Shown piece after piece: positions 35,523 through 36,880 of a DNA stretch of 64,000 bases. Where the stretch lies: the sequence record MK327944.1; one strand, given 5' to 3'. The position numbers and the translations under genes were made by a program. Each line of letters starts with the position of its first letter. Positions within the stretch are counted from its first letter, which is position 1. The DNA comes from Escherichia phage vB_EcoM_G2540-3. The notes beneath the pieces were generated by a model, which saw nothing but the letters and a program-made list of their open reading frames with translations, did no database searches and was not told where the DNA came from.

Positions 35523-35598
35523 TGGTCGAGGCAGTAGGGATCGAACCTACGACCCAGGACTTAGAAGGTCCTTGCTCTTCCTTCTGAGCTATGCCCCG
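35523..35598 (-). tRNA. tRNA-Arg (anticodon UCU), CCA encoded
   Basis: Hand-folded cloverleaf: acceptor CGGGGCA/TGCCTCG, anticodon loop CTTCTAA, T-arm GTAGG-TTCGATC-CCTAC. Confidence 0.75.
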
Positions 35599-35601
35599 TA
35601 A

Positions 35602-36267
35602 TTAAAATTTCATTTTTCGACCTTTAAACCATCCTTCTGGAATTGGGTCAGTTTTCTTAATACGTTTAGAAACTTTTTCATCTAATGAATGAATCCACAT
35701 CATACCAAATTGGGAATTCTTTTCGCCCTGTTGGTGTTTATTTCTGGCGTGAGATTCTTTCATTTTATTAATAGTTTCATCTGAATGGGACTTACCCAAG
35801 AAAGATTTAGTATTTGAAAATTTCTCTCTATACTTAGGATTATCCCAAAGCTGTTTAAACCTTTCTGAACCCATTTTACGATATTTTTCTTTAAGGTCTG
35901 GGTCGTTCTCAAATCTGGTTTTAAAAGCGGCAACTCCTTTTAAGGAAGCTTCTTTCTTTTTATCCAAATATTCTTTAGTGTTTAAATGGTCCCAACCACC
36001 TTCACCACCTAATTTCAAATTATAAACGTCAGGGCGCTTTAAAAACTCTTCAGTCACAATATTCTTTTCTGACTCAAACATAGAGGTTTTATCGTCAAAG
36101 AACTCTAATATTTCTTTAGAGAAATTTTCTATACCATACTTGTCTTGGGCTCTTTTTAATAATTTACCAGAACCCATATATCCATCATCTAAATTTTCGG
36201 TAGAATGAGCGCCTATATAGATTTTATTATTAATTTTATTTGTTATTTTATAAGTGTAATGGAACAT
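35602..36267 (-). CDS. segB: GIY-YIG homing endonuclease SegB-like, 221 aa
   Basis: GIY-YIG N-terminus YTYKITNKINNKIYIGAH; 221 aa; embedded in the tRNA cluster as in T4. Confidence 0.75.
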   Translation of the reverse strand: MFHYTYKITNKINNKIYIGAHSTENLDDGYMGSGKLLKRAQDKYGIENFSKEILEFFDDKTSMFESEKNIVTEEFLKRPDVYNLKLGGEGGWDHLNTKEYLDKKKEASLKGVAAFKTRFENDPDLKEKYRKMGSERFKQLWDNPKYREKFSNTKSFLGKSHSDETINKMKESHARNKHQQGEKNSQFGMMWIHSLDEKVSKRIKKTDPIPEGWFKGRKMKF

Positions 36268-36308
36268 AAATATCTCCTATTTCTAAGAGTATTTATGTTC
36301 CCAAAATA

Positions 36309-36380
36309 TGGCCCTGGGTGGAATTGAACCACCATCTGGCGATTATGAGTCGCTTGCTTGAACCTTCCAGCTACAGGGCC
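36309..36380 (-). tRNA. tRNA-Ile (anticodon CAU, Ile2/Met-type)
   Basis: Acceptor GGCCCTG/CAGGGCC, anticodon loop CTCATAA, T-loop GGTTCAATTCC; no encoded CCA. Confidence 0.7.
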
Positions 36381-36386
36381 TTGATA

Positions 36387-36459
36387 TGCTGATTGACGGA
36401 ATCGAACCGCCGACGTCCTCATTACAAGTGAGGTGCTCTACCTACTGAGCTAAATCAGC
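36387..36459 (-). tRNA. tRNA-Thr (anticodon UGU)
   Basis: Acceptor GCTGATT/AATCAGC, anticodon stem-loop CCTCA-CTTGTAA-TGAGG, T-loop GGTTCGATTCC. Confidence 0.8.
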
Positions 36460-36466
36460 GAAATTA

Positions 36467-36553
36467 CGGAGGCGATAGGATTTGAACCTATGAGTCGCCG
36501 GAGCGACTGCCGGTTTTCAAGACCGGTGCATTAAACCACTCTGCCACGCCTCC
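36467..36553 (-). tRNA. tRNA-Ser (anticodon UGA), long variable arm
   Basis: Acceptor GGAGGCG/CGCCTCC, anticodon loop CTTGAAA, extended variable arm, T-loop GGTTCAAATCC. Confidence 0.8.
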
Positions 36554-36555
36554 AG

Positions 36556-36629
36556 TCTCCATACAAGGATTTGAACCTTGGACCTCCTGATCCCAAATCA
36601 GGCGCTCTACCAAACTGAGCTACACGGAG
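36556..36629 (-). tRNA. tRNA-Pro (anticodon UGG)
   Basis: Anticodon stem-loop CCTGA-TTTGGGA-TCAGG, T-arm CAAGG-TTCAAAT-CCTTG. Confidence 0.75.
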
Positions 36630-36642
36630 TAAATTAAATTTG

Positions 36643-36713
36643 AGCGGATAATGAGAATCGAACTCACATCATCAGATTGGAAGTCTGAGGTAATACCATT
36701 ATACGATATCCGC
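36643..36713 (-). tRNA. tRNA-Gly (anticodon UCC)
   Basis: Acceptor GCGGATA/TATCCGC, anticodon stem-loop TCAGA-CTTCCAA-TCTGA, T-loop GAGTTCGATTCTC. Confidence 0.8.
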
Positions 36714-36719
36714 AAACTT

Positions 36720-36806
36720 TGGTACGAGAAGTGGGACTCGAACCCACAAGGAAATCATTCCGCAGCATTTTAAGTGCTGTGCCTTTACCAATTTGACCAT
36801 TCTCGC
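36720..36806 (-). tRNA. tRNA-Leu (anticodon UAA), long variable arm, CCA encoded
   Basis: Anticodon stem-loop CAGCA-CTTAAAA-TGCTG, T-arm GTGGG-TTCGAGT-CCCAC, 3' ACCA; G1-U72 wobble in acceptor stem. Confidence 0.8.
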
Positions 36807-36807
36807 G

Positions 36808-36880
36808 CTGGGAATAAAGGACTCGAACCTTTGCATCCTGGAATCAAAATCCAGTGCCTTACCAACTTGGCTAATTCCCA
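36808..36880 (-). tRNA. tRNA-Gln (anticodon UUG)
   Basis: Acceptor TGGGAAT/ATTCCCA, anticodon stem-loop CTGGA-TTTTGAT-TCCAG, T-arm AAAGG-TTCGAGT-CCTTT; separated from tRNA-Leu by 1 nt. Confidence 0.8.

Follow-up and report, generated by a model that had tools for sequence, protein, structure and literature searches.

The 64,000 nt stretch of Escherichia phage vB_EcoM_G2540-3 analysed here (sequence record MK327944.1), referred to as the window, contains a cluster of eight transfer RNA (tRNA) genes that is interrupted by an open reading frame (ORF) for a homing endonuclease, segB. All eight genes lie on the minus strand, between positions 35523 and 36880. Two independent tools, ARAGORN and the Rfam model RF00005, were applied to the whole window and agreed on these eight genes, and neither called a further tRNA gene elsewhere in the 64 kb. 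The RF00005 scores range from 57 to 73.5 bits (E-values 1.2e-9 to 3.3e-14), compared with a gathering score of 29 bits, and detection is far above chance level. In the direction of transcription, and separated by very short spacers, the genes are tRNA-Gln(UUG), tRNA-Leu(UAA), tRNA-Gly(UCC), tRNA-Pro(UGG), tRNA-Ser(UGA), tRNA-Thr(UGU) and a tRNA with a CAU anticodon, then segB, then tRNA-Arg(UCU). An earlier reading of this sequence (the original prediction) had given exactly this set, including the order, anticodons and coordinates, and ARAGORN called every one of the loci with the anticodon expected.

The cluster is flanked by trna.2-4 and internal head protein genes on one side and by e.8/e.7 on the other, on the same strand as in the T4-type operon (BLAST, and MAFFT alignment with T4 and PP01). 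A 1.8 kb region covering the cluster matches 923 phage records, nearly all of them T4-like phages of Escherichia, Shigella, Salmonella and Yersinia, and the best match is vB_EcoM-G28 (99.4 % identity), in which all eight tRNA bodies and segB are identical to those of the window. As the best deposited genome in a 24 kb comparison reaches only ~98.5 % identity at 96 % coverage, and none is higher, the window is classed as an ordinary mosaic Tequatrovirus. We conclude, with a probability of about 0.9, that the locus represents the canonical tRNA operon of T-even phages (Tequatrovirus), and its haplotype has already been deposited. Work on the tRNA cluster of T4, on its precursors without CCA, on the tRNA-Ile with a CAU anticodon and on homing by SegB goes back to the 1970s and, with this haplotype in GenBank, the locus is already known. 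Little weight is therefore placed on it as a discovery. The value of the analysis is in the corrections that it makes, namely that T4 is atypical, that the array is modular and that the loss of encoded CCA ends is haplotype-linked. Two leads, a connection between the CCAR sequence and SegB and a possible dual identity of the tRNA-Arg with a G3·U70 pair, merit testing at the bench.

The tRNA genes compared with those of T4

Clusters were compared as a set of 19, the window and 18 phages, all analysed in the same way. This is a small and phylogenetically non-independent sample, and the fractions of clusters given below are to be read as such. An exact scan of IMG/VR using the conserved core of tRNA-Leu recovered three loci, and phage records from INPHARED were instead sampled one by one. 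In T4 (NC_000866, approximately 70908–72530), the arrangement is Gln-Leu-Gly-Pro-Ser-Thr-Ile-segB-Arg-rnaD-rnaC. The neighbourhood, strand, order and anticodons are as in the window and the two regions are collinear at ~90 % identity, which extends to rnaD, rnaC, the terminator and the upstream promoter motif. The claim that the tRNA set matches that of T4 is consequently correct for anticodons and order, but not for the sequences, as the alleles of tRNA-Gln, the CAU tRNA and tRNA-Arg differ.

In the following, 3′ ends were read directly from the sequence and base pairs were taken from the ARAGORN drawings. Positions are on the minus strand, and the ARAGORN limits are added where they differ. 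tRNA-Gln (36808–36880, ARAGORN 36807–36880; 67.4 bits) has G73 followed by just the first C of CCA, and directly abuts tRNA-Leu. It differs from the T4 gene at eight positions, in the anticodon stem, and the allele found in the window is present in 13 of 17 sampled clusters. tRNA-Leu (36720–36806; 57 bits) has a long variable arm and an encoded CCA after A73. It is one base different from its T4 counterpart, with the C72 of T4 replaced by U in the window to give a G1·U72 wobble. This pair was found in the window, G28, PP01, HY03 and the clusters labelled IMGVR_a and sb2, whereas T4, T2 and 10 others have G1-C72. Both this wobble and the one at position 3 of tRNA-Arg, which pairs with position 70, had been noted in the original prediction and are seen in the ARAGORN drawings.

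The bodies of the next three tRNAs are identical to those of T4. tRNA-Gly (36643–36713, ARAGORN 36642–36713; 65.8 bits) ends in U73-CAAA, without the CCA that is encoded in T4 (CCAA). tRNA-Pro (36556–36629, ARAGORN 36555–36629; 66.8 bits) ends in A73-CU, also without CCA, and is separated by only 2 nt from tRNA-Ser (36467–36553, ARAGORN 36466–36554; 62.6 bits), which ends in G73-UAAU and, like that of T4, lacks CCA. In T4, tRNA-Pro and tRNA-Ser are known to be made as a dimeric CCA-less precursor that is matured by host enzymes, including by CCA addition. tRNA-Thr (36387–36459; 73.5 bits) differs from T4 by one base in the body, and at the 3′ end the CCAA of T4 is replaced by TATCAA, with loss of the encoded CCA (A73-UAUCAA).

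The tRNA with the CAU anticodon, which is of the tRNA-Ile2 type (see below), is found at 36309–36380 (59.9 bits) and ends in A73-UAUU, without CCA. It is ~70 % identical to the T4 gene. However, 16 of 18 sampled clusters share this body exactly, and it is the T4 allele that is the outlier. tRNA-Arg (35523–35598; 63.9 bits) has C1-G72, G2-C71, G3·U70, G4-C69, A20, A73 and an encoded CCA. It is a T2-type allele, matched at ≥95 % identity in ~420 phage records. Its stems are unrelated to those of the T4 tRNA-Arg, which has the same anticodon, though the flanks are nearly identical, a difference that resembles a cassette swap. By these comparisons, it is T4 that is atypical. It stands apart in tRNA-Gln, tRNA-Ile(CAU) and tRNA-Arg, three genes out of the eight, and for these three the alleles in the window are the commonest among the 19 sampled clusters.

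We also note that the acceptor stem of tRNA-Pro contains two G·U pairs, G5·U68 and G7·U66, and that a different tRNA-Pro allele in PP01 and HY03 carries 12 changes, mostly paired, in the anticodon, T and acceptor stems.

The transcription unit

The unit is larger than that in the original prediction, which stopped at tRNA-Arg and missed the promoter, two stable RNA genes and the terminator. A MotA-type middle-promoter motif (TGCTTTA, 12 nt, TATTAT) was found by pattern search at 36950–36974 on the minus strand, ~70 nt upstream of tRNA-Gln. The T4 sequence is identical in the alignment, and in T4 a middle promoter is located directly upstream of the tRNA cluster, which suggests that the motif is a promoter here. 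The pattern TGCTTTA-N11-13-TANNNT, which was used in place of a generic sigma-70 scan, occurs at 13 sites in the window where 1.5 are expected by chance. The other sites include 689–714 (minus strand), 18884–18908 (minus strand) and 40556–40581 (plus strand).

Downstream of tRNA-Arg, and also on the minus strand, lie the orthologues of T4 rnaD (species 2 stable RNA; 35402–35521) and rnaC (species 1 stable RNA; 35258–35395), the latter nearly identical to T4. Both were identified solely through alignment to the T4 annotation, and no Rfam family matched this region even at a permissive threshold. A strong intrinsic terminator, a hairpin followed by a T-run, was detected by a terminator scan at 35184–35207 (minus strand). 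It is conserved in T4 and is an annotated terminator in phage G28. In T4, the tRNA array and segB are carried on one transcript of ~1.75 kb, with termination after the species I RNA, and the promoter motif, rnaD/rnaC and terminator fit this published picture. By homology to T4, a single long transcript would start at the MotA-type middle promoter that lies upstream of tRNA-Gln and end at the terminator past rnaC. T4 biochemistry further suggests that eight tRNAs and two stable RNAs would be released from it by host enzymes, with 5′ ends generated by RNase P and 3′ ends trimmed by exonucleases, and that the host CCA-adding enzyme would complete the six tRNAs in which CCA is not encoded.

A T-arm-like hairpin in rnaC (approximately 35267–35282; CCGGGTTCGATCCCGG) is similar to the core motif recognized by SegB.

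segB and the modularity of the array

The gene between the CAU tRNA and tRNA-Arg (35602–36267, minus strand) encodes a protein of 221 aa and is preceded by a GGAG ribosome-binding site. It was assigned as segB, a free-standing GIY-YIG homing endonuclease gene, from the ORF call, a Pfam search and alignment to T4. The product has an N-terminal GIY-YIG domain (PF01541; 25.7 bits against a cut-off of 22.6) and is identical to the T4 SegB protein (221 aa) at 182 of 221 positions (82 %), without gaps, in agreement with the gene having been named segB in the original prediction. The DNA is 100 % identical to the copy in vB_EcoM-G28. Y17 and G19, the residues mutated in a catalytically dead SegB of phage T6, are both present in the translation. 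The stop codon of segB is 3 nt ahead of tRNA-Arg, counted to its first base, and the start is 41 nt after A73 of the CAU tRNA (35599–35604 and 36268–36308). As segB adjoins tRNAs on both sides, its message must be trimmed at either end when the flanking tRNAs mature, and this may limit expression of SegB.

SegB has the recognition sequence GGTTCRANTCC with a downstream CCAR, and cleavage directly after CCAR is preferred. When SegB of T4 homes into T2L, the Ile/Tyr/Asn/Arg segment is replaced, and its best target is the tRNA-Asn gene of segB-less phages. The tRNA array of T6 is cut by the phage's own SegB, which drives amplification, and co-localization of segB with tRNA genes is widespread. 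Site-specific cleavage and homing have been demonstrated for SegB of T4 and T6 only. By analogy, the segB of the window would be a selfish element that attacks relatives without segB, cutting their tRNA genes at the T-arm motif with a preference for the position after an encoded CCAR, and would then be copied in by recombination together with flanking tRNA genes.

Full-length segB was found in ~130 records, 54 of them with the allele of the window (≥95 % identity), and the segB-less Ile-Tyr-Asn arrangement was found in ~383 records. In the lineage of the window, segB occupies the place where T2-like clusters have Tyr-Asn(-His). Thus, segB is present or absent among otherwise homologous loci and the empty loci hold the target site, tRNA-Asn, a pattern that matches the published homing model.

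The closest clusters include, in addition to that of vB_EcoM-G28, those of the Tequatrovirus phages PP01, HY03, fPS-90 and SG1. PP01 and HY03 resemble the window in the small number of encoded CCA ends (two of eight, or two of the seven tRNAs called in HY03) as well as in the G1·U72 pair of tRNA-Leu, but differ from it in the tRNA-Pro allele (12 differences) and in a third tRNA-Arg backbone, which in PP01 has A3-U70. In the HY03 locus analysed, tRNA-Gln was not called. The T2-type clusters without segB (T2, RB27, EC101, FriedrichZschokke and others) share with the window an identical Ile(CAU) body, the same tRNA-Arg backbone and mostly the same tRNA-Gln allele, and the tRNA-Arg of FriedrichZschokke is identical to that of the window, including G3·U70. 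Unlike the window, they have Tyr-Asn(-His) in the place of segB and encode CCA in 7–9 of 9–11 tRNAs. The order in T2 is Gln-Leu-Gly-Pro-Ser-[ORF]-Ile-Tyr-Asn-Arg, and FriedrichZschokke has 11 tRNA genes, including Tyr, Asn and His, without segB.

Genes of the segB family were found between Ile and Arg in the window, G28, PP01, HY03, ZCEC15 and T4. In other clusters they are located elsewhere: Pu-Krd-SF4 has one between Tyr and Arg, OES_C-3, which is missing five tRNA genes, has one between Leu and Arg, and in RB51 and KIT03 one takes the place of tRNA-Pro between Gly and Ser. The array seems to have received an element of the segB type more than once and, on these comparisons, it can be regarded as modular in gene content. 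In HY03, a gene annotated as an HNH endonuclease is found just upstream of the array (locus L018, 347–955) and could represent another mobile endonuclease, at the opposite end of the cluster.

Identity of the tRNA with a CAU anticodon

Both ARAGORN and Rfam place the CAU anticodon in an elongator-type cloverleaf. Such a tRNA could be an additional elongator tRNA-Met that reads AUG, and ARAGORN labels it tRNA-Met, using the anticodon alone. The identical gene is also annotated as tRNA-Met in several deposited genomes. However, the acceptor stem (GGCCCTG/CAGGGCC) contains C4:G69 and C5:G68, the dominant identity elements for the E. coli TilS enzyme, and the isoleucine determinants A73, C4-G69, U12-A23, C29-G41, A37 and A38 in the published identity table are all present; three others, G16, U20 and U21, fall in an unusual D loop where their placement is not confident. 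The methionine determinants U4-A69 and A5-U68, which are present in E. coli tRNA-Met, are absent. The anticodon stem-loop (positions 28–42) is that of K-12 ileX, with which the whole tRNA shares 55 of 72 positions with no internal gaps, whereas alignment to metT needs many gaps. Matches were found in 5,423 of 5,426 E. coli genomes and the best hits were annotated as tRNA-Ile in all 12 rows sampled (75–81 % identity over the full length). In addition, the homologous gene is annotated as tRNA-Ile in T4 RefSeq and RB51, and the AUA codon is 4.4-fold enriched in the phage ORFs. A tRNA-Met identity was rejected on the TilS and isoleucine determinants, the ileX stem-loop and the E. coli tRNA-Ile best hits, and the chance that it is correct is minimal. 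Assignment to the tRNA-Ile2 type, with dependence on host TilS as had been proposed in the original prediction, is well supported by inference. TilS would convert C34 to lysidine, and this would switch the tRNA from Met/AUG to Ile/AUA.

The resemblance to E. coli tRNA-Ile2 (ileX/ileY, the lysidine-dependent reader of AUA) includes CAU, C4:G69, C5:G68, the 28–42 stem-loop and A73. The phage tRNA is unlike it in having a 3 bp D stem, an unusual D loop, an A27/C43 mismatch, a 4 nt variable loop and no encoded CCA. In the odd core, G13 is opposite A22 in the 3 bp D stem and there is no A at the usual position 14, yet the sequence is kept exactly in 16 of 18 sampled clusters. Annotation of this gene is systematically inconsistent, with many GenBank phages listing the identical gene as tRNA-Met and others, such as T4 RefSeq, RB51 and FriedrichZschokke, listing it as tRNA-Ile.

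Encoded CCA ends

As had been predicted, CCA is encoded only in tRNA-Leu and tRNA-Arg, that is, in two of the eight tRNAs, and the remaining six must, by this analysis, have it added by the host CCA-adding enzyme. In T4, four tRNAs (Leu, Gly, Thr and Arg) have an encoded CCA, and the state in the window is therefore a derived feature of this haplotype. Across the sampled clusters, CCA is never encoded in tRNA-Gln and tRNA-Pro and is always encoded in tRNA-Leu and tRNA-Arg. Variation is found in the other four. In the clusters with segB between Ile and Arg, tRNA-Ser and tRNA-Ile lack CCA in seven of seven and tRNA-Gly and tRNA-Thr lack it in five of seven (the window, G28, PP01, HY03 and an IMG/VR contig), being kept in T4 and ZCEC15. 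The remaining 12 clusters keep CCA in Ser, Ile, Gly and Thr. For tRNA-Ile, comparison with segB-less T2-type clusters shows the cause: there, the same body runs into CCA, whereas in seven of seven Ile-segB-Arg clusters the sequence switches to TATTTTG after A73. The boundary of the segB insertion thus lies directly after A73, and this tRNA lacks an encoded CCA because the region upstream of segB starts there.

The low number of encoded CCA ends could, alternatively, be an adaptation that lowers cutting by SegB of its own array, in which the dispensable CCAR was dropped while the T-arm core was constrained by tRNA function. SegB prefers to cut after CCAR, and the CCA-less tRNA-Ser site of T4 is cut at a different position. 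The CCA losses beyond Gln and Pro, which represent four separate changes (Ser, Ile, Gly and Thr), are all in Ile-segB-Arg clusters, with none in the 12 others. The CCA-less tRNA-Gly junction is exact in no more than 53 of 507 matching phage records (the count of Gly-Pro junctions being an upper bound only), which is near the 54 records with the segB allele of the window. Moreover, a perfect GGTTCRANTCC core is found in six of the eight tRNA genes of the window, and an adjacent CCAR solely in tRNA-Leu. Against this, all CCA ends are kept in Pu-Krd-SF4, which has a full-length segB in the Tyr/Arg slot, and in RB51 and KIT03, which have a segB-like gene in the Gly/Ser slot. T4 and ZCEC15 retain CCA in tRNA-Gly and tRNA-Thr, and tRNA-Leu and tRNA-Arg retain CCAR. 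The T6 SegB still cuts its own array and CCA-less sites are still cut in vitro, at a shifted position, and the authors who examined SegB in 2008 attributed self-protection to low expression. The association also reflects one linked haplotype that is spread as a unit by homing, and hitch-hiking, by changes that are neutral or mildly harmful, accounts for it just as well and more simply. A general self-immunity of segB carriers is weakened by Pu-Krd-SF4, RB51 and KIT03, and an adaptive origin, though retained as a low-confidence alternative, is in our view improbable. CCA loss is best described as haplotype-linked; a link to SegB is possible but unproven.

Codon usage and role of the tRNAs

To assess codon usage, 57 long ORFs from the window, with 15,675 codons, were compared to 40 annotated E. 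coli K-12 genes (14,323 codons). Although few host genes were sampled, the enrichment is unambiguous in its direction. The codons cognate to the eight tRNAs are all enriched in the phage: AGA 12.4-fold, AUA 4.4-fold, ACA 4.1-fold, UCA 3.8-fold, GGA 3.1-fold, UUA 2.5-fold, CAA 1.8-fold and CCA 1.7-fold, with AGA the most enriched among the 61 codons. The fit to phage codon usage proposed in the original prediction was therefore borne out, but the cognate codons, described there as mostly A/U-ending, are specifically A-ending for all eight tRNAs. In the T-even operon reading, the phage tRNAs would supplement scarce host tRNAs for the A-ending codons that are over-used by an AT-rich phage.

Several points weigh against this account of the operon. 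Transcription, processing, lysidine formation and SegB activity in this phage are all extrapolated from T4, T2 and T6, and in a generic sigma-70 promoter scan of the window sites were no more numerous than expected by chance. The tRNA region of T4 is not essential for growth in laboratory hosts, and it is therefore uncertain how large the translational benefit is. The view that phage tRNAs serve mainly in codon compensation has also been disputed, and evasion of tRNA-targeting defences has been favoured. According to this hypothesis, which is set out in the literature, the tRNAs would mainly be an anti-defence reserve that replaces host tRNAs cleaved or depleted by anticodon nucleases, Septu, retrons or OLD, with the array amplified by SegB when such defences act and the match to codon usage secondary. 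In phage T6, there is direct published evidence that SegB-driven amplification of tRNA-Tyr overcomes Septu, and the gene content of the array varies greatly from one close relative to another, which would be expected if it were an accessory locus in an arms race. However, the cluster in the window does not include tRNA-Tyr, the tRNA of the Septu case, and the match of eight of eight tRNAs to over-used A-ending codons, with AGA and AUA foremost, is directly predicted by codon compensation. We consider a mainly anti-defence role unlikely, if less so than the adaptive origin of CCA loss considered above, and prefer supplementation of host tRNAs.

The G3·U70 pair in tRNA-Arg

The acceptor stem of tRNA-Arg (CGGGGCA/TGCCTCG) together with A73 includes all four acceptor determinants of alanine identity (A73, G2-C71, G3·U70 and G4-C69). 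G3·U70 is the major determinant for alanyl-tRNA synthetase (AlaRS), and when introduced into non-alanine tRNAs of other systems it leads to mischarging with alanine. The tRNA also has the arginine set A20, C35, U36 and A73, of which A20 is the main determinant for arginyl-tRNA synthetase. Elements of the alanine set that are not found are G20, as position 20 is A, and the G1-C72 pair of E. coli tRNA-Ala, as 1:72 is C-G. Because of the UCU anticodon (C35 and U36) and A20, the gene was assigned as tRNA-Arg on the basis of its sequence. A dual-identity tRNA-Arg(UCU), charged in part with alanine by host AlaRS, would cause some AGA codons to be read as alanine during infection, and AGA is the most over-used codon of the phage. 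If this were correct, the A3-U70 sister allele (T2, RB27 and PP01) would be the faithful form. A limited search of the open-access literature found no report of a phage tRNA-Arg with G3·U70.

G3·U70 is not a rare private mutation, an explanation that was rejected because G is found at position 3 in nine of the 19 clusters, where it occurs with two different allele backbones, and an Erwinia jumbo phage has it as well. As the polymorphism is so common, G3·U70 is more likely to be harmless, and we regard partial charging with alanine as very improbable. U70 is fixed, and position 3 is A in eight of the 19 clusters; the unrelated allele in T4 has C-G. The base at position 3 follows the upstream flank, with G found where His or segB is upstream and A where Asn is upstream, the exception being PP01.

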